NCBI GenBank assembly: GCA_021811925.1 | Contig: JAKAPY010000003.1 | Span: 1 to 33,869, forward strand | Reading direction: 5' to 3' | Length of the DNA: 33,869 nucleotides | Source of the DNA: Thermoplasmata archaeon | GTDB lineage: Archaea; Thermoplasmatota; Thermoplasmata; Sysuiplasmatales; Sysuiplasmataceae | Shown: positions 19,717-33,670 of the stretch, piece by piece | Numbering within the stretch: the stretch's first letter is position 1 | Layout of the letters: every line of letters starts with the position of its first letter | Program-made: the position numbers and the translations under genes | Notes under the pieces: generated by a model | The model's database searches: none | What the model saw: only the letters and a program-made list of their open reading frames with translations | Told to the model about the DNA's origin: nothing

Positions 19717-19883
19717 GAACCTGCCCCTTTCCGGATGGCCCATCCCGAAGGCAAGCAGCCTGGCAGCCACTAGGAATAAACCGTATATAAATCATTCATC
19801 GGCCGGGTCCGTGAAAGGAAATTCTGCACAAACAATAATATCCGGGGTGCATTCGATTCCGGGCATTGAGGTCATTTGAACGG

Positions 19884-21263
19884 ATGACAACATACATCGG
19901 TGTCGACGATACAGATTCTCCGGACGGGATGTGCACAACCTATCTGCTCACTGAAATTATCAGGGAGCTTGATTTTCCAGTTCTCCTCGGGTATCCAAGG
20001 CTGGTCAGACTGAACCCGAACATACCATGGAAAACAAGGGGAAACGGCGCCCTTTCTATTGCCCTTTCAGGCAACCGTGGCAGTGCATTCAAGATAGGCG
20101 AAATTAGCGGCAGGGAAATCCTATCTTCAAACGAGCCTTCCGATCATGAAGAAAATGCAGACGAAATGCTCGAGAGGGTCTCTTCTGTAATAGAGAGGCT
20201 CGCACAGTTCGGTGAGGACAACACCAACCCCGGGCTGGTCATATCACACAACAGGCCCGACTCAGGTTTCTACTGGGATGCAGTCAGGGGAGTAGTCAAC
20301 AGAGATCAGGCGAAGAATGTGCTTTCCAGGGCAGGCGGAACTGCCCGGACCTGGAAGAACGGTAGGGGGCTGATAGGAGCTACGGCCTCCATATCCTGGG
20401 TGCCGCGGGGAAGGTCATTCGAGATCATAGCATACAGGGAGAGGGAAAGATGGGGAACCACCCGCCAGCTGGACGCCAGTGATGTTTCGGGCCTCAGCTC
20501 CAGGTTCCCGACGACCTTCAGCAATTATGACGAATCGAACAGGCACACATGCATTGTCCCTTCCTCCCCCTGCCCTGTGCTCTTTGGAATCAGGGGCTGG
20601 GACAGTTCTGTTCTGGAGGAGGCAATGCTTTCCATCAGAAGCGAACCCAGGGACAGGTGGCTGGTCTTCGAGACCAACCAGGGTACTGACGATCACATCA
20701 CAGTCCCGCAGGGCATGCTCGAACTCTTTCATTCCTACATGCTCAATGGCACAGTATCATCCGCACCAGTGACAATCCGGGGTGGTCATGTCTTCTTTGA
20801 CCTTGAGACGCATCAGGACAGGCTTGCCTGCGCTGCCTTTGAGGAGACAAAGGAACTGAGAAAGGTCGTGACCAGGCTGATTCCCGGCGACAGGATAACC
20901 GTGTGGGGCGGCCTCAAGCCAGGGCCTTTCGGCCCTTGTCTCAATCTTGAGAAGCTTGCTGTCAATGCGCTTGCTGTCAGGCGCGTCAAGAAGGCAAACC
21001 CAAGATGCGATGTATGTGGAAAGCCGATGCAATCCGCCGGGAAGGACAGCGGCTACAGATGCAGGAAGTGCCATACAAAGTCCGGAAGCGCCATATACGA
21101 GTCGGTGGAAAGGCAGATACAAGAAGGGTTGTATGGTGTGGCGGCTTCCTCAAGGAGGCACATTTCCAGACCGCCCGAGTGGTCATTTTCCACTTCTCCT
21201 GGGCACTCCACGGAACTGACAAATGCAAGGCAAGCTAATACCTGTCAGGGAAACCCTATCTAG
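19884..21263 (+). CDS. tiaS: tRNA(Ile2) 2-agmatinylcytidine synthetase
   Basis: GVDDTDS..GMCTTY, LVRLNPNIPWKTRGN, PVLFGIRG, TNQGTDDH, OB fold, and CDVC/CRKC zinc ribbon. Confidence 0.96.
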   Translation: MTTYIGVDDTDSPDGMCTTYLLTEIIRELDFPVLLGYPRLVRLNPNIPWKTRGNGALSIALSGNRGSAFKIGEISGREILSSNEPSDHEENADEMLERVSSVIERLAQFGEDNTNPGLVISHNRPDSGFYWDAVRGVVNRDQAKNVLSRAGGTARTWKNGRGLIGATASISWVPRGRSFEIIAYRERERWGTTRQLDASDVSGLSSRFPTTFSNYDESNRHTCIVPSSPCPVLFGIRGWDSSVLEEAMLSIRSEPRDRWLVFETNQGTDDHITVPQGMLELFHSYMLNGTVSSAPVTIRGGHVFFDLETHQDRLACAAFEETKELRKVVTRLIPGDRITVWGGLKPGPFGPCLNLEKLAVNALAVRRVKKANPRCDVCGKPMQSAGKDSGYRCRKCHTKSGSAIYESVERQIQEGLYGVAASSRRHISRPPEWSFSTSPGHSTELTNARQANTCQGNPI

Positions 21264-21307
21264 GAATAGAAACTAAACTTCGTATGAGGTGACTTGAAAC
21301 GAAGGCT

Positions 21308-22486
21308 TTGGATGAAGCTGTAATCGTATCTGCCGTGAGGACACCGATTGGCAAGTTTGGCGGCGCTTTCAGGAAGACCTCCGCGGTCGAGCTGGGCACC
21401 GCAGCGGTGAAGGCAGCGATAGTACGTGCGGGAATATCTCCCGGCGACGTGAGGGAAGTCATACTTGGAAACGTCCTTTCCTCGGGTCTCGGTCAGTCAC
21501 CTGCCAGGCAGTGCGCTGTTGGGGCGGGAGTCCCGTACGGTGTGGGTGCATTCAGTGTGAACAAGGTTTGTGGTTCGGGGCTGAAAGCGCTGATGCTTGC
21601 GGCAAACTCAGTCAGGCTTGGTGAACATGAAGTAGTAGTTGCAGGCGGTATTGAAAATATGAGCATGTCCCCTTACATATCCAAGCAGACGAGGTGGGGG
21701 AACAAGTACGGTGACATACTTTTCATAGACTCGATGATACAAGACGGCCTGTGGGATGCATACAACAATATTCACATGATGATAACAGGGGAGATTGTCG
21801 CCGAACGCTTCAACGTTACAAGGGAGCAGGCGGATAAATTTGCATACAGGAGTCACAAGAGGGCCGCCGAAGCGACCAGCGAGGGACTCTTCAAGGAGGA
21901 AATCGCTTCCGTCACTGCAAAGGCGGGCAAAGAACGAGCCGTTGTGTCGAAGGATGAGGGGCCAAGGGCAGATACAACGCTTGCAAGGCTAGGGCAGCTC
22001 GAGGCGAAATTCAAGAAAGGAGGCATTTGCACCGCAGGAAATTCATCACAGTTGAGCGATGGTGCATCCGCCATGGTGGTCATGTCGTCAAAAAGCGCCG
22101 AGGCACTCGGAGCGAAGCCTATCGCAAGAATACTTGATTACAACACAGGCGGCACTCGGCCGGAATGGGTTATGGAGGCACCCATTGAGACAACAAGGGA
22201 ACTGCTAAAGAGAAACAGTCTGCACGTTGAGGATGTCGACCTTTTTGAGCACAACGAGGCTTATGCAACAGCATCCGTCGCAGTCATGGAGTCTTTGGGC
22301 ATCAAGGAGGAAAGGTTCAACATCAACGGCGGGGCAGTCGCACTTGGTCATCCTCTTGGTGCAAGCGGCGCACGCATAACAACAACCCTGATACACAACC
22401 TGAAGAGAAAAGGAAAGAAGAAGGGCGTTGCCACACTTTGTCTTGGCGGCGGCAATGCGGTAGCAATGCTGTTGGAGTCGATGTGA
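21308..22486 (+). CDS. Acetyl-CoA C-acyltransferase (thiolase)
   Basis: RTPIG, NKVCGSG, NEAY (variant of NEAF), GHPLGASG and CLGGG motifs. Confidence 0.96.
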   Translation: MDEAVIVSAVRTPIGKFGGAFRKTSAVELGTAAVKAAIVRAGISPGDVREVILGNVLSSGLGQSPARQCAVGAGVPYGVGAFSVNKVCGSGLKALMLAANSVRLGEHEVVVAGGIENMSMSPYISKQTRWGNKYGDILFIDSMIQDGLWDAYNNIHMMITGEIVAERFNVTREQADKFAYRSHKRAAEATSEGLFKEEIASVTAKAGKERAVVSKDEGPRADTTLARLGQLEAKFKKGGICTAGNSSQLSDGASAMVVMSSKSAEALGAKPIARILDYNTGGTRPEWVMEAPIETTRELLKRNSLHVEDVDLFEHNEAYATASVAVMESLGIKEERFNINGGAVALGHPLGASGARITTTLIHNLKRKGKKKGVATLCLGGGNAVAMLLESM

Positions 22487-23331
22487 TTTTGACGAGAATG
22501 GGAGTCCTTGGCCTCGGTACCATGGGAAGTGGAATCGCCCAGACTGCCCTCGAGTCGGGCATTGAGGTCTTTGCCGTCGAGCTGAATGATGAGCTGCTGT
22601 CAAAGGGTGCAGCAAGAGTGAAGGATGGGCTTGAGAGAAGGGTCAGGTCTGGCAAGCTCAGCAGCGGCAAATCATCATCTCTGCTGTCGTCACTTAGCCT
22701 CTCCACAGATATTTCATCCTTCAGGAATTGTGACATAATTGTAGAAGCTGTGTTCGAAAACGCCGAAACCAAGTCCAGCGCACTCGCTTCTATAGGGAGG
22801 ATTGCGGGCGAAGGGACAATAGTCGCCTCAAATACCTCGTCAATTTCCATCACACTGCTTTCCAAGGGCCTGAAATACCCCGGGAACTTCATAGGAATGC
22901 ACTTCTTCAATCCCGTCCCCGTCATGAAACTGCTTGAACTTGTGAGAGGATATCTCACGACCAACGAGACAGTGGAGAAGGCAAAATCAATTGGAGAGAA
23001 GATGGGGAAGGAAGTTGTCGAGGTCAGGGATTATCCAGGTTTTGTTTCAAACCGTGTGTTGATGCCCATGATCAATGAAGCAGCCTTTGCCCTGATGGAG
23101 GGTATAGCCCGAAAGGAGGACATAGACAGGGTGATGAAGCTCGGGATGAATCACCCGATGGGGCCGCTGGAGCTTGCGGACTTCATAGGTGTTGATGTCT
23201 GCCTGGATATTATGAATGTCCTGTATTCGGGTTTCAAGGATCCTAAGTACAGGCCATGCCCCCTTCTGGTCAATATGGTAAATGCAGGTAGAACGGGAAG
23301 AAAGTCAGGAGAGGGCTTTTACAAGTATTAG
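22483..23331 (+). CDS. hbd: 3-hydroxyacyl(butyryl)-CoA dehydrogenase
   Basis: GLGTMGSG, EAVFE, SNTSS, GMHFFNP and HPMGPLELAD motifs; GTG start overlapping the thiolase stop. Confidence 0.94.
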   Translation: MILTRMGVLGLGTMGSGIAQTALESGIEVFAVELNDELLSKGAARVKDGLERRVRSGKLSSGKSSSLLSSLSLSTDISSFRNCDIIVEAVFENAETKSSALASIGRIAGEGTIVASNTSSISITLLSKGLKYPGNFIGMHFFNPVPVMKLLELVRGYLTTNETVEKAKSIGEKMGKEVVEVRDYPGFVSNRVLMPMINEAAFALMEGIARKEDIDRVMKLGMNHPMGPLELADFIGVDVCLDIMNVLYSGFKDPKYRPCPLLVNMVNAGRTGRKSGEGFYKY

Positions 23332-23340
23332 GGACAATGC

Positions 23341-24588
23341 ATGATGAAACGTGAACAGGCCAGCACTCTTGCAGTCACGTCCGTCGCACATTTCATCAAC
23401 GACGGGCAGTCGGCAATACTCCCGCTCATGTTTCCCCTTCTGGCATATTTCGTCACATCCGGCCTTCTGATAGCTGTCATAGCGACTGTCTTCTACATAT
23501 TCTCCTCATTCGCCTCGCCTTATGCGACCGCCATGGCGGAAAGGAGCGGGAACATGGGGAAGTGGATGGGAATAGGCATGCTGATACTCGCTGCCGGAAC
23601 AATTGGCATGGGACTTGCAATAGCGCCTTCTCATGCGTTCCCGGCCGCTTCCTATGTCCTGATCCTTGTATTTGCCTCGGTAGCCGGATTTGGCTCGAGC
23701 TTCTACCATCCAATAGGCGCCAGCCTGATCCAGCTCTCGTTTGAAGAAAACGTGCAGGGAATCGCCCTGGGCACGAATGGAACACTGGGAAGTCTTGGGA
23801 GAGCACTATTCACTACAATATCTGCTGCCGTATTCACATTCCTTGCCATTGGCCATGACAATTACTTTGCCCTTGTCTACGGCATGGCAATACTCGGCTT
23901 CGCTGGTCTGGTCTTATCTATTCTGGTCATTATGTACTTCAGCAGCGTGAAGTATGCATCCTTCGCCAGAAAGAGGACAGCGAAGAAGCGTGTGAGTCTC
24001 GGTCCGGTGATCAGAAGGACTTGGCTGCTCATACTGATAACAGTGGTCCGCAACATACAGTCTACCGGCGCCTTCATCTTCCTCACCACGTACATACTTT
24101 CGCGGGGGCTGCTCAGTTACGGCGTTGGCCTCGGGTTCGTCTATACCCTCATGCTGGCAGGCCCGGTCGTCGGTCAGCCCATATTTGGAAGGATGTCTGA
24201 CCTGCTTGGTAGAAAGACTAGCCTCTTCGTCACGTCGGTGGGTTCCGGCCTGTTCATGATTCTCTTTTTGCTCACAAGCTCACTTTTCCCTTACTCGCTT
24301 GTCTTCCTGGCCCTTTTCGGGACGTTTGCGTTCACCGGTTTCCCAATACTGCTTCCAATAGCCTATGCCCAGCTCCCACCAGAAAGCAGGGCAACGGGCA
24401 ACGGCGTGATGTGGGCTGCAATTGGCAGCGGGTCTGCAGCCGGCCCCATCATAACAAGGTTTCTCGCCGAAGGGAGCCTTGCAGGAAGCCTGTACGCATC
24501 GTTTGCGATTCTCTCCGCGTGTGTAATCGCAGTTTCATTTCTTTCCTTTGCCGTCAGAATAAACGAGAACAACGGAACGGCGGCATGA
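23341..24588 (+). CDS. MFS transporter (Fsr-like)
   Basis: About 12 TMs; HFIND, SFYHP and GRMSDLLGRK motifs. Confidence 0.92.
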   Translation: MMKREQASTLAVTSVAHFINDGQSAILPLMFPLLAYFVTSGLLIAVIATVFYIFSSFASPYATAMAERSGNMGKWMGIGMLILAAGTIGMGLAIAPSHAFPAASYVLILVFASVAGFGSSFYHPIGASLIQLSFEENVQGIALGTNGTLGSLGRALFTTISAAVFTFLAIGHDNYFALVYGMAILGFAGLVLSILVIMYFSSVKYASFARKRTAKKRVSLGPVIRRTWLLILITVVRNIQSTGAFIFLTTYILSRGLLSYGVGLGFVYTLMLAGPVVGQPIFGRMSDLLGRKTSLFVTSVGSGLFMILFLLTSSLFPYSLVFLALFGTFAFTGFPILLPIAYAQLPPESRATGNGVMWAAIGSGSAAGPIITRFLAEGSLAGSLYASFAILSACVIAVSFLSFAVRINENNGTAA

Positions 24589-24599
24589 AAGACCGCCTC

Positions 24600-25280
24600 T
24601 CAAAGGCTGAGCTGTTCGGCAAGCATGTTTGCCATTTTCTTCTCTATCATTCTGAAATGATAGCTAAGCGTGCTCTTTGGCAGCTTCAGCTCCTTGCTCA
24701 GACTGCTCAGTGACATTTTCCTTGGCCAGTTGAAGAAACCGCCTTCAGAAGCTGCCCTGAAGAGCATCAAGTCCATGTCAGACAGATTGTTGATTATCTT
24801 CAGTGCATGAAGCTCGTAGAATACAGAAGGATATTCCTGGAAGAATTCCTGCTGTGTAATGTTCTTCAGCGAGACAACAGTCGTGTACTTGTCGTTTATC
24901 TGGATCGCAGTGGGTCCTTCGGTTGCACTGCTGATGAAGAACCATCTCTCCACTCCCCTGTGGACCACCACAGGGTGTATCCTGAAACCGTTCAGGCCGA
25001 GCTTCAAAAACATAGAAGTTGCAATTGTTTCATAGAATGCGGTAGCAATGCCGTTCTTCTTCGAAAGAAGGCTGAAATTGTTTACCCTCCTGTGACGTGA
25101 GAAATATGTAAGCGCCCTGTCAAGCTCGACCCTGTCGACAGAGTAGAATATCGAGAACATCTTCTGCCTCCCCTCAATAAGCTGTGTATTCATTATCAGA
25201 ATGTAGGTATTCTCAAACTTTCTGCTCACGTCTATGTGCGGGCAGTCGGATTGAGTGACAGCAATTTCAGTCAGGACCAT
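24600..25280 (-). CDS. HTH-10 (bacterio-opsin activator-like) transcriptional regulator
   Basis: N-terminal DCPH; C-terminal GFFNWPRKMSLSSLSKELKLPKSTLSYHFRMIEKK. Confidence 0.88.
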   Translation of the reverse strand: MVLTEIAVTQSDCPHIDVSRKFENTYILIMNTQLIEGRQKMFSIFYSVDRVELDRALTYFSRHRRVNNFSLLSKKNGIATAFYETIATSMFLKLGLNGFRIHPVVVHRGVERWFFISSATEGPTAIQINDKYTTVVSLKNITQQEFFQEYPSVFYELHALKIINNLSDMDLMLFRAASEGGFFNWPRKMSLSSLSKELKLPKSTLSYHFRMIEKKMANMLAEQLSL

Positions 25281-25305: not shown

Positions 25306-25353
25306 TATTAACCTTTTTAAAAAAAGTTGAACACGTTCCAAAAAAGGTAATTA
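25306..25353. promoter_or_regulatory. Symmetric divergent BRE/TATA promoters with a palindrome between them
   Basis: AAAAAGGTTAATA on minus (25318-25306), AAAAAGGTAATTA on plus (25341-25353), GAACACGTTC at 25329-25338. Confidence 0.6.
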
Positions 25354-25408: not shown

Positions 25409-26620
25409 ATGACTCAAAGTTTGGCAAAGCATACAGGCTCGCATTCACGCAAGGAAGCCAAGGATATACATCGTGTTGAAATAAACTACCGGGGGATTTT
25501 CCAGAAGAGGCTCGGATACAATATCTCCCATGACATCGTGTACGCTGCGCATTCCGAGGGGAAGACTGCCTTCTCCAACGGCAGGTACAGCGACGACCCG
25601 CAGAGAAACGGGATACCTTGTGCAAACTTTGCGTTTGTTTCAAAATCGCTCGGTGAAGAAGAGCTGGAGGCAATTGCCAGCGCGAAGATGGACGTTGACG
25701 AGGCAGACCTTGTGCTTGTTCTCGACGATACTCTTGCAAAAGGCCTTGAGCCCTGGGGGCACTATGGTATCAGGCCGATCAACCAGAAGGTTGTTGAAGG
25801 CAGCACAATCCTGTTTGTTTCCAGGCGCAAACCCGAAGAGCTCAAGAAGCTGCTTGAGAAGAAGCCTTTCAAGTACAACCTGGCGGTCCTACCCGGAGAC
25901 AGGAGTTTTGCCGGCCTGTGGTATTACAGGGACGACAACTCGGACATCAGGTTCCTTGGCGCCGTCGCAAGGATAGCGCCTCAAGTTCTCGACATCGAAA
26001 CAGTTGTGAATTACGTGCGCAACAAGTACAAGGACGAAAAGAGGGTCGAGGCGGCAAAGGAGGCATTCGACTCGGTGGTGATAAATGAGGTTACTCCCGA
26101 TGATGGAATGGTCTGGCCTTATGAGAAACCAGTGCTTCCGGCATGGCAGGATTTTGACGAGGGAATCGTGGTAAAAAGCGTCAAGCGCGGGTTCAAGATG
26201 GGTCCAAGGGGTCAGAACAGGAACCCTGATTTCAAGAGAGGGACAAGCAAGACCCAGAGGCCGGTCGTTCGTTTTGATACATGCATAAAGTGCACTCTCT
26301 GCTGGTACGACTGCCCGGACGAGTGCTTCGACCCGACACCAGACGGACTCTTCGATATCAACTATGAATACTGCACCGGATGCGGCAGGTGTGCACAGGT
26401 CTGTCCCGTCAATGACTGCATAGTGATGGTAGACGAACTCAAGTTTGACAACACCAAGAGCCCATGGGAGCAGTACACGAAGAACCCCGAACAGTACGTC
26501 CGGGTGATGGAGGAGAAGAAGGGGCTGACAAGGGAAGTTCCTTCACCCGTCACCGGTAAGGGCGAACAGTTCATTGAGCTGAAGAGCAGCGTTCCGTTCA
26601 AGGCAAAGGGGGTAAAGTAA
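25409..26620 (+). CDS. 2-oxoacid:ferredoxin oxidoreductase gamma-delta fusion (oxalate oxidoreductase delta-like)
   Basis: Gamma-like domain without the GxGGQG loop (YRGIFQK...RYSDDPQR) plus two ferredoxin motifs, CIKCTLCWYDCP and CTGCGRCAQVCP. Confidence 0.88.
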   Translation: MTQSLAKHTGSHSRKEAKDIHRVEINYRGIFQKRLGYNISHDIVYAAHSEGKTAFSNGRYSDDPQRNGIPCANFAFVSKSLGEEELEAIASAKMDVDEADLVLVLDDTLAKGLEPWGHYGIRPINQKVVEGSTILFVSRRKPEELKKLLEKKPFKYNLAVLPGDRSFAGLWYYRDDNSDIRFLGAVARIAPQVLDIETVVNYVRNKYKDEKRVEAAKEAFDSVVINEVTPDDGMVWPYEKPVLPAWQDFDEGIVVKSVKRGFKMGPRGQNRNPDFKRGTSKTQRPVVRFDTCIKCTLCWYDCPDECFDPTPDGLFDINYEYCTGCGRCAQVCPVNDCIVMVDELKFDNTKSPWEQYTKNPEQYVRVMEEKKGLTREVPSPVTGKGEQFIELKSSVPFKAKGVK

Positions 26621-27868
26621 ATGGCCGCAACAATGAAACAGACCAAGGTCTATGATAGGGAAGAGCTCGCTTCGGGCACCGACGGTGTCGCACAGGCGGT
26701 GAGGCTTGCAGATGTCGACGTGTTTGCCGCTTATCCAATCCGACCGTACACAGGCGTGATGGACAGGCTTGCAAAGTTCATCGCAGACGGCAAGTTTGAC
26801 GCCGAGTATATCATCGCCGACGGTGAGCATTCTCAGTTTGAGATAGGAAAGCATGCTTCTTCCGTAGGCGCGCGTGCCTTCGTCGGTAGCAGCGGGACGG
26901 GCTGGCTTTACGCAATGGAAGCTCTTGCAACTACAGCCACAGACAGGTTGCCGGTAGTGGCACTCGTAGGCAACAGGGCTCTCGACGATCCAGGGGCCTT
27001 CGGCGTGGAGCACAATGATGCAATGCTTGTGAGGGACCTTGGATGGCTTGTTGTGTGGGTCTCCACTGCCCAGGAGGCGCTGGACACAACCCTGATAGCA
27101 TACAGGGTTGCCGAGGATCCGACAGTCCTTATGCCGTGTGCCGTCGCAATGGACGGAGGATATCTCACCCATTCCGAGCACATAATCAGGGTTCCGACGA
27201 AGGAGTCGGTCTCCAAATTCCTCCCGAGATACAACCTGGGAAAGAGGGTCATGCACCCTGACAACCCCGTCTCCATAGCACCCCAGATCAATGAAGACTG
27301 GTGCATGGAAATCAGGAGGCAGAACTGGGAAGCAGCGAAGAGAGCCAAGGAAGTAATCTACAAGGCTTACAAGGAATTCAACAGCGTGTTCGGCTCCAAC
27401 TACACCAACCCGTTCTTCGATGAGCACATGACGAGTGGCGCTGAAACGATTGTGATTGGCATGGGCACTGTTTCCTCGGCGGCAAAGGTTGCTGTCAACA
27501 GGCTGAGGGAAAAAGGAGAAAAAGTCGGTTTCATCAAGCTCAGGTGGTTCAGGCCATTCCCGACTGAAGAACTCAGGAAGGCACTTTCCCGCGCAAAGAG
27601 GGTAGCCGTCATAGACAGAGACTTCGCTCATGGCGGGCCGGATGACGGTGGTGTGCTCTATAATGAGGTCAGGTCCGTTCTTTTCGACGCGAAGAACAAG
27701 CCGAAAGTTGTCGACTTCATAGCGGGCCTCGGAGGCAGGGAGATATCGATAGAGGACGTTATGGAAGTAGTCAGCATCACAAAGAAATGCAAAGCAGATG
27801 AACGCGTTCACTGGGTGGGCCTCAGGGAAAGGAAGACCGGGGGCACACATGTCAGGATGAAGAGGTGA
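26621..27868 (+). CDS. 2-oxoacid:ferredoxin oxidoreductase alpha subunit (oxalate oxidoreductase-like)
   Basis: YPIRPYTG, DGEHS, NRALDDPG, QEALD, FRPFP and GLGGRE motifs. Confidence 0.9.
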   Translation: MAATMKQTKVYDREELASGTDGVAQAVRLADVDVFAAYPIRPYTGVMDRLAKFIADGKFDAEYIIADGEHSQFEIGKHASSVGARAFVGSSGTGWLYAMEALATTATDRLPVVALVGNRALDDPGAFGVEHNDAMLVRDLGWLVVWVSTAQEALDTTLIAYRVAEDPTVLMPCAVAMDGGYLTHSEHIIRVPTKESVSKFLPRYNLGKRVMHPDNPVSIAPQINEDWCMEIRRQNWEAAKRAKEVIYKAYKEFNSVFGSNYTNPFFDEHMTSGAETIVIGMGTVSSAAKVAVNRLREKGEKVGFIKLRWFRPFPTEELRKALSRAKRVAVIDRDFAHGGPDDGGVLYNEVRSVLFDAKNKPKVVDFIAGLGGREISIEDVMEVVSITKKCKADERVHWVGLRERKTGGTHVRMKR

Positions 27869-28878
27869 TTGAATTGGTTTCGACTCAACAGGCAAAGAAG
27901 GAATTCGAAAGCGCTAAGCTATACACAAGTGTGCACAACATCGACCTGGAGGAGTTCTACTCTTCCGGGCACAGAACATGCCAGGGCTGCGAGTCGGCGC
28001 TTGTAATGCGCGATTTCGTCAAGGCCTCGGGGCCGAGGACAGTCGTCACCGGTGCCACGGGCTGCATGTATGTGGCAAACACAAGCTACATGACGACTCC
28101 CTGGGTTGTTCCCTGGATGCACACCCAGCTTGGTGCTGGCGGGGCATCCGCAATCGGAATGGCGGCAGGGCTCCGTGCGCTAATGAGAAAGGGCAAGATA
28201 AAGAATGAGAAGATCAACGTGATCAACTTCTCCGGAGACCTCGGAGGCGGGGACATGGGCCTCGGAGGGATATCAGGCGCGCTGCAGACAGATTATGACC
28301 TGCTTGTCATAATATACGACAACGAATCTGCTGCAAACACAGACATACAGGCGACGAACCTGACGCCCTATGGTGCACAGACAACTTTCAGTCCGACAGG
28401 GCCAGCAAAGAGGATCATGCACACGAAATGGAAGAAGAATGTCGCTCCAATGATGGCCGTTGGCCATCCAAACTGCAAGTATGTGGCCACTGCATGCGCG
28501 ACCTGGCCGCCGATGGACTACATGAACAAGGTGAAAAAAGCGCTAGACATCGGGGGCCCTACGCTTATCCACACACTTGATCCGTGCCCGAAGGGCTGGG
28601 ATTACCATCCGAGATATTCCGGGGAACTTGGTCAGCTTGCGATAAAGTCAGGGCTCTTCCCGTTGTATGAGATAATCAAGGGCGAGGTCCGCTACACCTA
28701 CGATGCAAGGAAGCAGAAGCGCGTCCCGGTCAGGGAATACCTCGAGAAGCAGGGGAGGTTCACACATTTCATTGACGAGGACTATGAGCTTTTCCAGACA
28801 AAGGTCGACGAGATGTGGAACGACTGGGAAATACCGGGTGTCGCTCCAGTCAAGGGAATTCTGAAGCTTGCGCAATAA
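27865..28878 (+). CDS. 2-oxoacid:ferredoxin oxidoreductase beta subunit (TPP-binding, oxalate oxidoreductase-like)
   Basis: GHRTCQGC, TGCMYVANTSY, GDL...YDNES and PCPKGW motifs; start could be TTG 27874. Confidence 0.9.
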   Translation: MIELVSTQQAKKEFESAKLYTSVHNIDLEEFYSSGHRTCQGCESALVMRDFVKASGPRTVVTGATGCMYVANTSYMTTPWVVPWMHTQLGAGGASAIGMAAGLRALMRKGKIKNEKINVINFSGDLGGGDMGLGGISGALQTDYDLLVIIYDNESAANTDIQATNLTPYGAQTTFSPTGPAKRIMHTKWKKNVAPMMAVGHPNCKYVATACATWPPMDYMNKVKKALDIGGPTLIHTLDPCPKGWDYHPRYSGELGQLAIKSGLFPLYEIIKGEVRYTYDARKQKRVPVREYLEKQGRFTHFIDEDYELFQTKVDEMWNDWEIPGVAPVKGILKLAQ

Positions 28879-29139: not shown

Positions 29140-31134
29140 TTACTGCTGCGAAGGAGGCATGCCCTTTTCCAGGTCAAATTGCTTTATCGTATAGTTTCTC
29201 GGACTTGAAAACGGCCTGAAGTATTTGCCGTTGCCCTTGTAGAATTTCGAGAAGAACTCGACGTAGATCAGCCTCGCGCCCTGAATGCCCGGCTCGAACA
29301 CTGCAATGATCAGGTTGAATATCTGGCCCACAACAAGGATAACCACGCCTACTACGGCCAGCAGCGGCGACTTGTGTATACCCCTCCAGAATATCAGGTC
29401 GATGACATAGGCAAGTATGACCGAAGCGAGCAGTATTCCGACTATCCTCGTGTATGACAGTATGTGGCTTATGATGGAAGGAAGTTCCATCGCCCCCATC
29501 GTCCCCTCGGAGCCGAATATTGTTGCAACTCCGGCTATTATCATTGCTATCGATGCAAGACCAGCCGTCGTGCCAGTTATCGAGGTCTTGTGTATAAGGT
29601 CGAGTCCGAGTGTGGCAATGCCCCAGGCAAACAGTAGCCATCCGATCTTGCCTGCTATTCCCCTCCGGTGGCCCTTCGTGTATTCGTTGTATGCGCCGAG
29701 CAGCAGACCCAGTGATACCAGCGCCAGACCGAAATAGCCGGAGAACAGAAGCAGTTTTCCTATGCCTGTATTGAGCAGGGTCGACGACGTGACAAAAACG
29801 GAAAGCGTCGGAAGTCCCATGTTGAACACAGTCACTGGCAGAATCGGGAAACCGAAGAAAGTGTTGAACAGGAGGCCCGCCACAATCGCTATAATGGACG
29901 AAGGTATGAGCGCCCTCGCGAGCGTCTTTAGCGCGTTTGGCCCCATTATCATCAGCACGAAGCGCGACAGCATCTTAGGTATGTGGCTCTTGGCGACCGG
30001 ATGGTCTATCCTGTGTTTTATGAAAAGCGATATGAGAAGTATAGTCAGGCCATATCCCCAGTCTCCGACCATTATGCCGAAGAGGAAAGGAAATACAATG
30101 GCAAAAACAAGCGTCGGGTCGACCTCGTACTCCTGCGGGAGTGAGTAGAAGCGGATGAAGAATTCAAAGAGTTTTATTCCCCTCGGGTTCTTCAGAAGCG
30201 TCGGTGGCTGCTCATCCGTCTCCACGACAGATACAATCACATTTCCGCCGGTCGTGTTGTTGAGCAGGTCGACAAGCATTTTGTAATGCCGCTTCGGCAC
30301 CCAGCCTTCAATAGCGAAACTGTCCCTCGTGGAGGAAAGCTTCTCCGAAACCTCGAATTTCCTTGACTCTATCTCAAGCTGTTCCCTGATCTGCGCTACA
30401 CTGGCAAACCACCTGTCAGAGAGCTGGCCAAGCCTTTCCTGTATCTTCCCCGACTGCTTTTCAAGTTCGCCTACTCTCTTCCTCGAGTCATCTATGAAAT
30501 CGGAAGGCAGGCCACGCATTGCAGGCACCGCAATGATTTGGAACCCCTTCTCGTTGGACAGCCTTGCAAGATCCGAGTCCATCCCTGCCGGGACAGATAT
30601 GAGCACGTAATCATTTCCAAGGTCCCTGCAGACGGATCCATGGATTGTTTCCCTTACCGGGGAGTATATGTCTATATCCTCCTTCTTAACAGCAAGGAAG
30701 GAGGCTATGAGCCTGCCGGAGTAAATCGAAAGATCGTAGTTGAGTGCTGACAGGGCCCCCGCGATCCTTACCTTCTCCTTCAGGTCCCTTGTCTCTGCAG
30801 ATATTGAGCTCTCTTCCTCCTTTAGCCTCTTGAGCTCCGGTTCTATGTTGACCTCCGAAGCGGCGGCCGACAGTTCGTCGAGAGACTTGAAGAACTTTTT
30901 CTCAACCGGCCTCTTCGGCATTATGGCCTCCATTCCCCTGAACCGGAGCAGTTCGGAGCTCAGCTTTTCGTAGCTTTCCGCCTGCAATCCCTTCTGCATC
31001 AGGCCTGCAACTTCGCCGCTGACTTCCTCAAGCTGCATGATGCCGACATCATGCAGAGCGGACACTATGACATTCCGCTTCGAGTTGGCGCCTATGACAC
31101 GTATCCTTATGATCTTCTCCGGTTTCAGTGTCAT
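29140..31134 (-). CDS. atpI: A/V-type ATP synthase subunit I (a)
   Basis: EGWVP, PPTLLKN, EVDPT, FGIMVGDWGYG, SHILSYTRI and RLIYVEFFSKFY motifs. Confidence 0.96.
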   Translation of the reverse strand: MTLKPEKIIRIRVIGANSKRNVIVSALHDVGIMQLEEVSGEVAGLMQKGLQAESYEKLSSELLRFRGMEAIMPKRPVEKKFFKSLDELSAAASEVNIEPELKRLKEEESSISAETRDLKEKVRIAGALSALNYDLSIYSGRLIASFLAVKKEDIDIYSPVRETIHGSVCRDLGNDYVLISVPAGMDSDLARLSNEKGFQIIAVPAMRGLPSDFIDDSRKRVGELEKQSGKIQERLGQLSDRWFASVAQIREQLEIESRKFEVSEKLSSTRDSFAIEGWVPKRHYKMLVDLLNNTTGGNVIVSVVETDEQPPTLLKNPRGIKLFEFFIRFYSLPQEYEVDPTLVFAIVFPFLFGIMVGDWGYGLTILLISLFIKHRIDHPVAKSHIPKMLSRFVLMIMGPNALKTLARALIPSSIIAIVAGLLFNTFFGFPILPVTVFNMGLPTLSVFVTSSTLLNTGIGKLLLFSGYFGLALVSLGLLLGAYNEYTKGHRRGIAGKIGWLLFAWGIATLGLDLIHKTSITGTTAGLASIAMIIAGVATIFGSEGTMGAMELPSIISHILSYTRIVGILLASVILAYVIDLIFWRGIHKSPLLAVVGVVILVVGQIFNLIIAVFEPGIQGARLIYVEFFSKFYKGNGKYFRPFSSPRNYTIKQFDLEKGMPPSQQ

Positions 31135-31138
31135 CTGT

Positions 31139-31462
31139 CTATTCCTCTAGAAATGAGAGCACGAGCTTGTTGACAGCCCCTTCCAGCTCTGCCTTTGTCA
31201 CCCTGAGTTTCATTGCAGCAGCCTCCTTCCGGGCTCCTTCAACTATTTCCTCGCATCGGGCGCCCGTGTCAGTTTTCACCTTCTGCAGTGCTTCCAGGTA
31301 AGCCTTCTCGGCATCCGTCTTCGCCGATTCAACGCTGCCTGCGAGCTCCTTCCTCTTCTGCTCCAGCATTTCCTCCTGCTTCCTGGCGAACTCCCTGATT
31401 TCGGCCTCTACGGAATCCTCTTTTTCCCTGATTGACTTGAGCGCCTCAACATCGCCTGTCAT
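31139..31462 (-). CDS. atpH: A/V-type ATP synthase peripheral stalk subunit H (G)
   Basis: Charged coiled-coil protein of 107 aa immediately upstream of subunit I. Confidence 0.8.
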   Translation of the reverse strand: MTGDVEALKSIREKEDSVEAEIREFARKQEEMLEQKRKELAGSVESAKTDAEKAYLEALQKVKTDTGARCEEIVEGARKEAAAMKLRVTKAELEGAVNKLVLSFLEE

Positions 31463-31639
31463 TCATATCACCCCTGATAGGAAAAGAACCAGCAGGACAA
31501 GCGCTATTGCCGGGTTCAGCATGACCACAAGTCTTCTGATGAGCATGAAGCGTCTCAGGCTTGGATTGCCCCGGACCATGTCGGGCGTCACTAGGACCTG
31601 CTTCACAAAGTGCCTCACCTTGTACTTAGGCTGATACAT
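31463..31639 (-). CDS. Unannotated 58-aa basic protein with a C-terminal TM helix inside the ATP synthase operon
   Basis: MYQPKYKVRHFVKQVLVTPDMVRGNPSLRRFMLIRRLVVMLNPAIALVLLVLFLSGVI*; GGAGG SD; overlaps the atpD end by 14 nt; its TGA abuts the atpH ATG. Confidence 0.82.
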   Translation of the reverse strand: MYQPKYKVRHFVKQVLVTPDMVRGNPSLRRFMLIRRLVVMLNPAIALVLLVLFLSGVI

Positions 31640-32282
31640 CCGCTGCCTCCTTCCCCTGTCTCTGCACCATTTTCCTTTTTATGACCTTGAGCGTAGTGAA
31701 AGTGTCTCTCTCTATCTCGTCCAGCCTCATCCTGATCTGCTTTGCAGAGTACGTCAGCTGTGGAATGAGTATGTTCTCGATCGCGTTTGACCTTCTCTTC
31801 GTCTTGTCTATCTCCTGCAGGAGCCTCCTCATCGAATTCTCCTTTTCGGCGATCTCGAGCATCGATGAAAGCACCTTTTCGAACTTCTTGATTGCATCGT
31901 TGACTGGGGCGCTGACGGCGGTAGACCTGTACTCCGGGCTGAGAACGGAGAGCCCTGCCTTTACACTGAGCTCCGGGACCCTGACGCCCATCACATTCTT
32001 CGCCCCCACGCCGACATTGGAGCTGGACGACATCTGCGCGACACGCTCGAGCTCCATTGCACCGCTCATGACTTCTGCAAGCTTGAGCGAATCAATTGCC
32101 CTGCCTATGTCTTCCCTCAGGTTCTCCCTGAGACCCCTGATCTTCCTGCTAATGTTGAAGAATTCCATCACCAGGGCGTTGCGCTTCATTTTCAGCAGGT
32201 CCAGCCCTCTCTTGGCGAGCTTGATGCGCCTGTTTGTCCTGATCAGTTCTATCCTGGTGGGCTTGATCTGCTGTGCCGGCAT
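31626..32282 (-). CDS. atpD: A/V-type ATP synthase subunit D
   Basis: KPTRIEL, LLKMKR, NVMGVRVP and TKRRSNAIE motifs; true start at ATG 32282 (TAATG overlap with atpB). Confidence 0.95.
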   Translation of the reverse strand: MPAQQIKPTRIELIRTNRRIKLAKRGLDLLKMKRNALVMEFFNISRKIRGLRENLREDIGRAIDSLKLAEVMSGAMELERVAQMSSSSNVGVGAKNVMGVRVPELSVKAGLSVLSPEYRSTAVSAPVNDAIKKFEKVLSSMLEIAEKENSMRRLLQEIDKTKRRSNAIENILIPQLTYSAKQIRMRLDEIERDTFTTLKVIKRKMVQRQGKEAADVSA

Positions 32283-33670
32283 TACTCCTTCCTCCACTTG
32301 CCGTACTTCTCTATGAACTCCCTCTTGACTCTCTTCATCTCTGTTTTGGGCATGACGCTCAGAAGCTCCCATCCAAGGTCCAGTGTCGTCTCTATTCCCC
32401 TGTCCTCGTAGACACCCTGCTTCACGAACCTGTTTTCAAACTCGTCCGCGAATTTCAGGTAGAGCCTGTCATTTGCCCCGAGCGCCTCCTCACCCACAAT
32501 CGCACTGAGGGATCTCAGGTCCTTGCCGTTGGCGTAGGCCGAATAGAGCTGGTCGGCAATGCCCCTGTGATCCTCCCTTGTTCTCCCCTTGCCTATGCCC
32601 TGGTTCATCAGCCTTGAAAGAGAGGGAAGGACGTCTATCCCGGGATATATCCCCTTTCTCTGCAGATCTCTGCTAAGCACCGTCTGTCCTTCTGTAATGT
32701 AGCCTGTCAGGTCGGGGATGGGATGCGTTATGTCGTCTCCGGGCATTGTCAGTATTGGTATTTGTGTAATCGAACCGTTCTTTCCCCTTATTTTTCCTGC
32801 GCGTTCGTATATTGTGCTCAGGTCGGTGTACATGTAGCCAGGATAGCCCCTTCTTCCCGGGACTTCCTCCCTCGCGGATGAAATCTCCCTGAGCGCCTCG
32901 CAGTAGTTTGTCATGTCGGAGAGAATCACAAGAATGTGCATCTCCCTCTCATACGCCAGATACTCTGCCGTTGTGAGTGCAACCTTTGGGAGCATGATGC
33001 GTTCCATCGACGGGTCGGAGGAAAGGTTGAGGAAAAGCACGGCTCTTGACAGTGCACCCGTGTTCCTGAATTCGCTGATGAAGAAATTGGCCTCCTCGCT
33101 TGTTATGCCCATGGCACCGAAGATGACAGCGAAGTTCTCTCCTTTCCCGAGCACCTTCGCCTGCCTCGCTATCTGGGCCGCAAGCATGTTGTGTGCCAGG
33201 CCAGACCCTGAGAAGATTGGCAGTTTCTGCCCCCTCACAAGCGTGTTCATTCCATCGATTGTGGAAATGCCCGTTTCAATAAACTCTGAGGGCTCCTCCC
33301 TGGAATAAGGATTTATCGCGTTTCCAACGATTTCCACCCTCTCCTTGCTTATGATCAAAGGGCCACCATCGGATGGTTCGCCGAGACCGTTGAATATCCT
33401 TCCGAGCATTTCGTCTGAGACTGTAATCCTGGCCGTTGTGCCAGAAAACTTCACTCTTGTCTTCCCGACATCCAATCCCGAAGTCGGACCGAACACCTGC
33501 ACGACTGCCAGGCCCCTGCTTGTGTCGAGGACCTGCCCGGTTCTTGTCTGTCCATCAGGCGTCCTGATTTCTACAAGCTCGTTGTATGCAGCGTTCTCCA
33601 CCTTCTCCACAAAAAGGAGAGGACCCGTTATCTGTGATATTGACTTGTAGCTCACACCAGGCATTTTCAT
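32282..33670 (-). CDS. atpB: A/V-type ATP synthase subunit B
   Basis: [41 protein letters not shown] and PSLSRLM motifs. Confidence 0.98.

Follow-up and report, generated by a model that had tools for sequence, protein, structure and literature searches.

A predicted 2-oxoacid:ferredoxin oxidoreductase from an acid-mine Thermoplasmata archaeon belongs to a large sister clade of Moorella oxalate oxidoreductase

Introduction

The oxalate oxidoreductase (OOR) of Moorella thermoacetica (EC 1.2.7.10; structures 5C4I, 5EXD and 5EXE) is, to our knowledge, the only oxalate:ferredoxin oxidoreductase characterised so far, and gene surveys of oxalate breakdown rely on this enzyme and on the pathway of formyl-CoA transferase (Frc) and Oxc. 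The Moorella enzyme (MtOOR) distributes its domains over three subunits, with domains I and II in alpha, domain VI in beta, and domains III and V in delta. According to PMC5020499, MtOOR works without coenzyme A (CoA), the anionic substrate is bound by Arg31alpha in the enzyme's unique YPIRP motif, and this arginine and Asp116alpha take part in a bait-and-switch mechanism that involves a moving loop, for which Asp116alpha is important. Here we examine a locus with the same division of domains in a 33,869-nucleotide stretch of DNA (the window) from contig JAKAPY010000003.1 of a Thermoplasmata archaeon of acid-mine origin (assembly GCA_021811925.1), the window's own genome being 85% complete.

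Judged from its genes, the enzyme encoded at this locus is a three-subunit 2-oxoacid:ferredoxin oxidoreductase (OFOR) containing thiamine pyrophosphate (TPP) as well as three [4Fe-4S] clusters; it is part of a large sister clade of Moorella OOR. On balance, it is probably a CoA-independent oxidoreductase for oxalate or a near-identical acid, with an altered second half-reaction. A first-pass annotation had read the locus as OOR-like, and below we consider how far that description holds and which other functions the evidence could accommodate.

Results

Cofactor motifs and substrate-binding residues

Three open reading frames (ORFs) on the plus strand, spanning positions 25409 to 28878, form an operon-like set in which the first pair abut and the last pair overlap by 4 nt (Table 1). 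Their products have the features of the OFOR superfamily, namely the POR_N, PFOR_II and TPP_enzyme_C domains, four cysteine motifs for the proximal cluster in beta (GHRTC, QGC, TGCMY and DPCPKGW), and two CxxCxxCxxxCP ferredoxin motifs in the first subunit, in which Pfam gives Fer4 matches only, at residues 288-340. Beta also has the Mg/TPP motif GDL...DNES. Relatives were gathered by scanning one genome per species; 258 were confirmed, and the best 80 loci are compared here. All 80 have alpha, 77 the first subunit of about 400 aa and 78 beta, with the misses falling at contig ends, and the cysteine motifs are kept in 72-79 of 79 betas and in 35 aligned first subunits.

The motif that distinguishes alpha lies within the sequence AAYPIRPYTG, where YPIRP occupies residues 38-42 and the arginine is residue 41. 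As the first-pass annotation had noted, this arginine takes the place of the threonine of YPITP, and every one of 81 family alphas has both Arg41 and a second arginine, Arg119. The residue roles given here rest on PMC5020499, together with the numbering of the window alpha on its alignment with 5c4i_A, in which Arg41 corresponds to MtOOR Arg31alpha and Arg119 to Arg109alpha. The latter substrate arginine is common to all OFORs and does not discriminate among them. In beta, GHRTC (residues 35-39) and TGCMYVANTSY (residues 65-75), both named in the same annotation, are indeed present and are identical in 79 of 79 and 78 of 79 family betas, respectively. Because they are near-invariant across family alphas and betas, these motif features are not chance occurrences.

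The earlier claim that these features and the three-subunit layout typify OOR stands in part. The layout, with domains III and V fused, matches MtOOR, and CMYVANTSY in beta is common to the two enzymes, whereas the corresponding sequence in the pyruvate:ferredoxin oxidoreductase (PFOR) of M. acetivorans is CLEVMTTPF. GHR.C, in contrast, also occurs in M. acetivorans PFOR beta, so GHRTC is not OOR-specific. Moreover, a gamma-delta fusion is also found in a YPITP paralogue of the same genome, so the subunit layout alone is not diagnostic. This paralogue, a canonical OFOR at positions 1-2048 of contig C163 (loci L082 and L089), consists of a YPITP alpha and a 307-aa gamma-delta fusion with GRGGQG. 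It resembles the window enzyme in having a fused gamma-delta and a separate alpha, but differs in both motifs; the two alphas share 35% identity, and that of the paralogue lies deep in the YPITP group.

A glycine-rich loop of the GRGGQG type binds CoA. In the N-terminal domain of the first subunit, YRGIFQKRLG stands where the contig C163 paralogue has GRGGQG, and a G.GG.G motif occurs in the first 120 residues of 0 of 35 family members, which bears out the earlier observation that the loop is missing, as it is from MtOOR. A search of the genome with the Pfam POR gamma family (PF01558) matched two other OFORs only, and not the window first subunit.

Closest characterised enzymes

For all three subunits, MtOOR is the closest characterised enzyme. 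Among Protein Data Bank (PDB) entries, the window alpha scores 336 bits against 5c4i_A of Moorella OOR versus 214 bits against 9bt4_B of M. acetivorans PFOR, beta scores 269 bits against 5c4i_C versus 191 bits against 9bt4_C, and the first subunit scores 58 bits against Moorella OOR delta versus 54 bits against M. acetivorans PFOR. The best NCBIfam matches are likewise the OOR models (NF045790-NF045792) for all three subunits. The four-subunit M. acetivorans PFOR (9BT4), the second-best PDB match, shares its superfamily, cofactors and domain folds with the window enzyme, as well as an Asn preceding the substrate Arg (NR) in alpha. It differs in having YPITP, separate gamma and delta subunits, a glycine-rich loop and a dependence on CoA.

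The first subunit differs from its counterpart in MtOOR. With 403 aa against the 315 aa of delta, it is about 90 aa longer, and it has a strongly diverged domain III and a C-terminal tail without counterpart in MtOOR delta. The ferredoxin domain alone matches OOR delta strongly, while the N-terminal domain matches weakly, at 8 bits. The tail, which follows the ferredoxin domain, comprises residues 347-403 (26447-26620) and is conserved over about 60 residues (SPWE...KKG...VTG.G). The first subunit was modelled with AlphaFold from 35 family sequences (mean predicted local distance difference test score, pLDDT, 64). Most of residues 20-240 are well predicted and the ferredoxin domain poorly, with pLDDT below 50 over about residues 249-345, and the tail takes the form of two helices with two short strands, at low to moderate confidence. 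A Foldseek search with this model returned the MtOOR delta chains (5c4i/5exd/5exe; E 9e-15) as top matches, followed by PorC gamma subunits.

A sister clade of OOR

Relatives of the window enzyme are found in metagenome-assembled genomes of Thermoplasmata and Nitrososphaerales (69-98% identity) and in numerous bacteria of soil and sediment (62-67%), among them Binatia, Acidobacteria, Vicinamibacterales, Chloroflexi and delta-proteobacteria; the best 120 relatives listed are all at least 64% identical. For phylogenetic analysis, representatives at 50% identity were used, among which P0121 stands for the window family, P0124 for a neighbouring cluster with FPIRP, and P0130 for the true OOR clade. 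The Moorella sequence itself is not among the tree rows, and the OOR clade is recognised through P0130, which passes the NCBIfam OOR alpha cut-off (583 bits against 500) and scores 512 bits against 5c4i_A.

In a FastTree phylogeny of 118 alphas, a single branch holds 22 of the 23 rows with the motif arginine, plus one fragmentary SPPIP row, and is distinct from a group of 94 rows, most of them YPITP; the last arginine row, P0260 (LPIRP), has a long branch and attaches just outside the two groups. In an IQ-TREE analysis of 43 alpha rows (LG+C20 PMSF, quick search), the true OOR clade and the window clade are reciprocally monophyletic, with support of 100 and 99, and the YPITP group has support of 95. 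Support from the Shimodaira-Hasegawa-like approximate likelihood ratio test (SH-aLRT) is 93 for the window clade with P0124, and 90 for all three when the OOR clade is included. The P0124 cluster is thus the nearest outgroup of the window clade, at 49% identity, and keeps the motif arginine and the NRALDDPG loop; it differs in that its loop reads NRALDDPGNF, with Asn rather than Ala at the position equivalent to Asp116alpha, which we call the switch position. An OFOR phylogeny had been suggested as a check on the first-pass annotation, and in both trees the window alpha groups on the OOR side, with P0130 standing for MtOOR, and outside the YPITP group of pyruvate and 2-ketoisovalerate oxidoreductases (POR/VOR). 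The description as OOR-like therefore holds in so far as MtOOR is the closest characterised enzyme for every subunit. Because the equivalog scores, the clade placement and the residue at Asp116 all fail to agree with OOR, however, the window enzyme is, on this sequence evidence, a sister of OOR and not a member of the OOR family proper.

The database label of these relatives is "pyruvate ferredoxin oxidoreductase (alpha subunit)", as the first-pass annotation had anticipated when it warned of mislabelling, and PorA_Arch (NF040682) is the second-best NCBIfam match of the window alpha. Both observations would be expected of an ordinary CoA-dependent pyruvate or 2-ketoisovalerate:ferredoxin oxidoreductase. 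Yet the PorA_Arch score, 358 bits, is well under the cut-off of 550, as is the PorB score (265 against 405), and the sequence departs from the PorABDG type in the arginine that replaces the YPITP threonine in 81 of 81 family alphas and in the missing GRGGQG loop. The alpha also lies outside the YPITP group in both trees. Furthermore, the genome already holds three other genes for OFOR alpha subunits, including one with YPITP and GRGGQG, and therefore pyruvate oxidation does not need the window enzyme. We consider the function implied by the database label very improbable.

The active-site loop

The alignment with 5c4i_A places MtOOR ADR109-TLDPPGD116-F117-GEEH against window GNR119-ALDDPGA126-F127-GVEH. 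The switch loop is GNRALDDPGAFGVEH in the window and ADRTLDPPGDFGEEH in MtOOR, so that Asp116, Pro113 and Asp108 of MtOOR are replaced in the window alpha by Ala, Asp and Asn, respectively, while the Phe following the switch position is kept. These differences extend to the clades: the loop reads VGNRALDDPGAFGVE[HQ]N across 120 window-clade alphas, whereas 95 members of the clade that passes the OOR cut-off retain the core LDPPGDFGSEHT. At the level of the whole subunit, 136 alpha columns are at least 90% conserved in both clades, of which 93 have the same residue and 43 a different one. Thus, the substrate-binding arginines are kept, but the residue named as catalytically important is systematically replaced. 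Asp123, which is invariant and aligns with MtOOR Pro113, might take over from the switch aspartate.

Neighbouring genes in bacteria

We clustered the ORFs of the 80 loci and scanned representatives; many loci are short, so the neighbour counts are lower bounds. Directly upstream of the operon, 42 of 80 loci have a GntR/FCD regulator, and the carboxylate-uptake genes TctA and TctC are present in 11 and 12 loci, respectively. Two neighbours are more specific. Frc is found beside the operon in 9 of 80 loci, with three members scanned scoring 675-684 bits against a cut-off of 504, and an oxalate/formate antiporter of the major facilitator superfamily (MFS) in 3 of 80, with two members scanned scoring 572 and 592 against a cut-off of 335. 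A TPP enzyme resembling Oxc and 2-hydroxyacyl-CoA lyase (below all cut-offs) occurs in 6 loci, as does a gene like that of ADP-forming acyl-CoA synthetase. Downstream of the operon in L013, L021, L024, L048 and L063 are the Oxc-like enzyme, Frc and the synthetase-like gene, and L079 has the TPP enzyme only. The full set may constitute a combined oxalate module with substrate-level phosphorylation. No family match was found for the neighbour clusters c12, c36, c43, c59, c53, c56 and c24, nor for two ORFs upstream of the operon in L050.

None of 40 genomes with a member of the window clade was found to have a true OOR alpha; each matches the OOR alpha model just once, at 366-395 bits, which is under the cut-off. 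This lack of co-occurrence fits a functional equivalence with OOR. Of the 11 genomes among the 40 in which Frc is present, 6 have it no more than about 10 kb from the operon. Taken together, the neighbours in the bacterial branch point to oxalate.

The same neighbourhoods bear on which way the reaction runs. OFORs are reversible in principle, according to PMC13768988, and some bacterial loci have formate-dehydrogenase-like and NuoEF-like genes near the operon (a NuoEF-like gene in 3 loci and a molybdopterin oxidoreductase in 3), as might be expected of a mainly reductive, carboxylating enzyme that uses reduced ferredoxin to turn CO2 or a C1 unit into oxalate or glyoxylate. Such an enzyme would lack the CoA-binding loop required for a formyl-CoA substrate, however, and the genes around the operon are those of uptake and of catabolic regulation (GntR/FCD, TctABC, OxlT-type and Frc), while the window provides no carbon-fixation context. 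We regard a chiefly reductive role as most unlikely.

The archaeal branch and its regulator

In the IQ-TREE analysis, the window enzyme groups with those of L002, L005, L007 and L009 in a clade of their own (support 99), apart from the bacterial members. A comparison of 41 related genomes shows orthologues (identity of at least 76%) in every genome of the window's genus (5 of 5) and, within the same family, in 2 of the 4 genomes that represent a second genus. A third genus, represented by one genome, yielded none, and neither did the 31 genomes from other Thermoplasmata families, in which the best matches are POR/VOR-type paralogues at 30-40% identity.

In this branch, unlike in Moorella, the operon is accompanied by a divergently transcribed regulator of the HTH_10 family. 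The regulator (cluster c9) adjoins the operon in 7 of 80 loci, all of the archaeal-type branch, and is likely to control it. When seven intergenic regions between regulator and operon are aligned (window, L001, L002, L004, L006, L007 and L008), the invariant columns concentrate in an imperfect palindrome, which is a candidate operator through which HTH_10 control could be exerted (Table 1). A gamma-glutamyltranspeptidase gene adjoins the operon in two archaeal-type loci, L006 (2248-3906) and L007 (8299-8880).

An MFS transporter is common to the window, L001, L002, L004 and L005, and cluster c18 adjoins the regulator in the last four of these. This transporter may serve the operon. In the window, its gene directly follows those of a thiolase and a 3-hydroxybutyryl-CoA dehydrogenase, and its link to the operon is therefore uncertain. 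A search of the ESM Atlas with the window transporter returned generic MFS clusters only, and a single comparison with the OxlT-type neighbour of a bacterial member gave a local match of 71 residues only (30 bits, E 9e-05).

Table 1. Coordinates of the operon and associated features in the window
Feature	Position	Strand	Evidence
First subunit, gamma/delta type, 403 aa	25409..26620	+	divergent domain III; 2x[4Fe-4S] ferredoxin-like domain V; conserved tail of ~60 aa
Alpha subunit, 415 aa, domains I and II	26621..27868	+	YPIRP (Arg41), Arg119, loop GNRALDDPGAFGVEH; Pfam POR_N + PFOR_II
Beta subunit, 337 aa, TPP-binding domain VI	27865..28878	+	Pfam TPP_enzyme_C
HTH_10 (bacterio-opsin-activator-type) regulator, 226 aa, divergent from operon	24600..25280	-	Pfam HTH_10, E 1.7e-12
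Imperfect palindrome TTGAAC-NN-GTTC(C)AA, candidate operator	25327..25341		alignment of 7 intergenic regions
MFS transporter, 415 aa, no specificity assigned	23341..24588	+	Pfam MFS_1

The wider surroundings of the operon include, at 19866-24588, genes for a TiaS-type tRNA-Ile agmatidine synthetase, the thiolase, the 3-hydroxybutyryl-CoA dehydrogenase and the MFS transporter upstream, and, at 29140-33670 on the opposite strand downstream, an operon for an A/V-type ATPase (subunits I, D and B-like). A 450-aa ORF on the minus strand (26543-27895) runs antisense across the whole alpha gene. Similar antisense ORFs also occur in bacterial loci (clusters c4 and c5), and we take the window ORF to be a by-product of codon composition and not a gene.

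Discussion

If the window enzyme is an oxidoreductase for oxalate or a near-identical acid, its reaction may be envisaged as follows. Oxalate, or a very similar small anionic 2-oxo acid, would bind between alpha Arg41 and Arg119, be attacked by the TPP held in beta, and then be decarboxylated. The two electrons released would pass from the proximal cluster in beta through the two clusters of the ferredoxin-like domain to free ferredoxin as the predicted acceptor. No CoA would be used, because domain III is without the GRGGQG loop. The second half-reaction would have to differ in detail from that of Moorella OOR, because the switch residue Asp116alpha is replaced here by Ala126.

A number of our results weigh against assigning oxalate as the substrate. 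All three subunits miss the OOR equivalog cut-offs (alpha 384.3 bits against 500, beta 328.4 against 590, delta 88.9 against 230), and the window alpha falls not inside the clade marked as that of MtOOR but in its sister. The switch position is Ala in 120 of 120 members of the window clade and Asp in 95 of 95 true-OOR relatives, and among the 136 doubly conserved alpha columns the 43 that differ include many in the loop at 116-132, at 171-185 and at 219-235. With respect to context, the signal comes from a minority, as Frc was not found in 29 of the 40 genomes with the window clade. Frc, OxlT-type transporters and other markers of oxalate are all lacking at the archaeal loci; Frc turned up in none of 6 archaeal genomes, and neither Frc nor Oxc over the cut-off was found in the window's own 85%-complete genome. 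The window MFS transporter was considered as an oxalate/formate antiporter and rejected, having no NCBIfam OFA/OxlT match and no PDB match at E <= 0.01. The suggestion of the first-pass annotation that this organism may oxidise oxalate is thus not supported as it was stated, as the link to oxalate comes from the neighbours of bacterial members.

Many of these same results could be accommodated by a CoA-independent oxidoreductase for another small 2-oxo acid; glyoxylate, oxamate, mesoxalate and hydroxypyruvate are examples. In that case the Ala126 loop and the other clade-specific differences would be signs of a new substrate and not of a new mechanism, and the scores under the OOR cut-offs, the divergent domain III and tail of the longer first subunit, and the archaeal loci without oxalate markers would be in keeping with it. 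On the other hand, the invariant Arg41 argues for an anionic group beside the reacting carbon, the two oxalate-specific neighbours, Frc and the OxlT-type antiporter, recur beside bacterial members, and the absence of true OOR from the 40 genomes fits two enzymes that do the same work. We therefore view a different substrate of this kind as a serious but rather unlikely possibility, and continue to favour oxalate or a near-identical acid.

A broader proposal can be made more tentatively, namely that the clade embodies a new OFOR specificity or mechanism, acting without CoA either on another small anionic 2-oxo acid or on oxalate without the aspartate switch, and that in acid-mine Thermoplasmata it is switched on by the HTH_10 regulator through the palindromic operator. 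If true, this would be a ferredoxin-reducing route so far undescribed for any archaeon. In the literature searched, whose scope stopped short of the primary OOR papers, we found no paper on the window clade or on archaeal OOR. Nor was a characterised archaeal member found among the titles listed as matches on oxalate oxidoreductase, archaea and oxalotrophy, in agreement with the first-pass annotation.

Our findings may be viewed in the wider context of how OFORs are recognised in genomes. The sister clade is large and uniformly labelled as pyruvate oxidoreductase, and it spans soil Acidobacteria, Binatia, Chloroflexi and other bacteria, as well as Thermoplasmata and Nitrososphaerales. To this clade the window adds an archaeal branch with its own regulator and candidate operator. 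Because its members are without the aspartate thought to drive the second decarboxylation, the clade provides a natural test of the mechanism proposed for OOR. If the clade does oxidise oxalate, then a widespread CoA-free turnover of oxalate is being missed, including what would be its first archaeal case.

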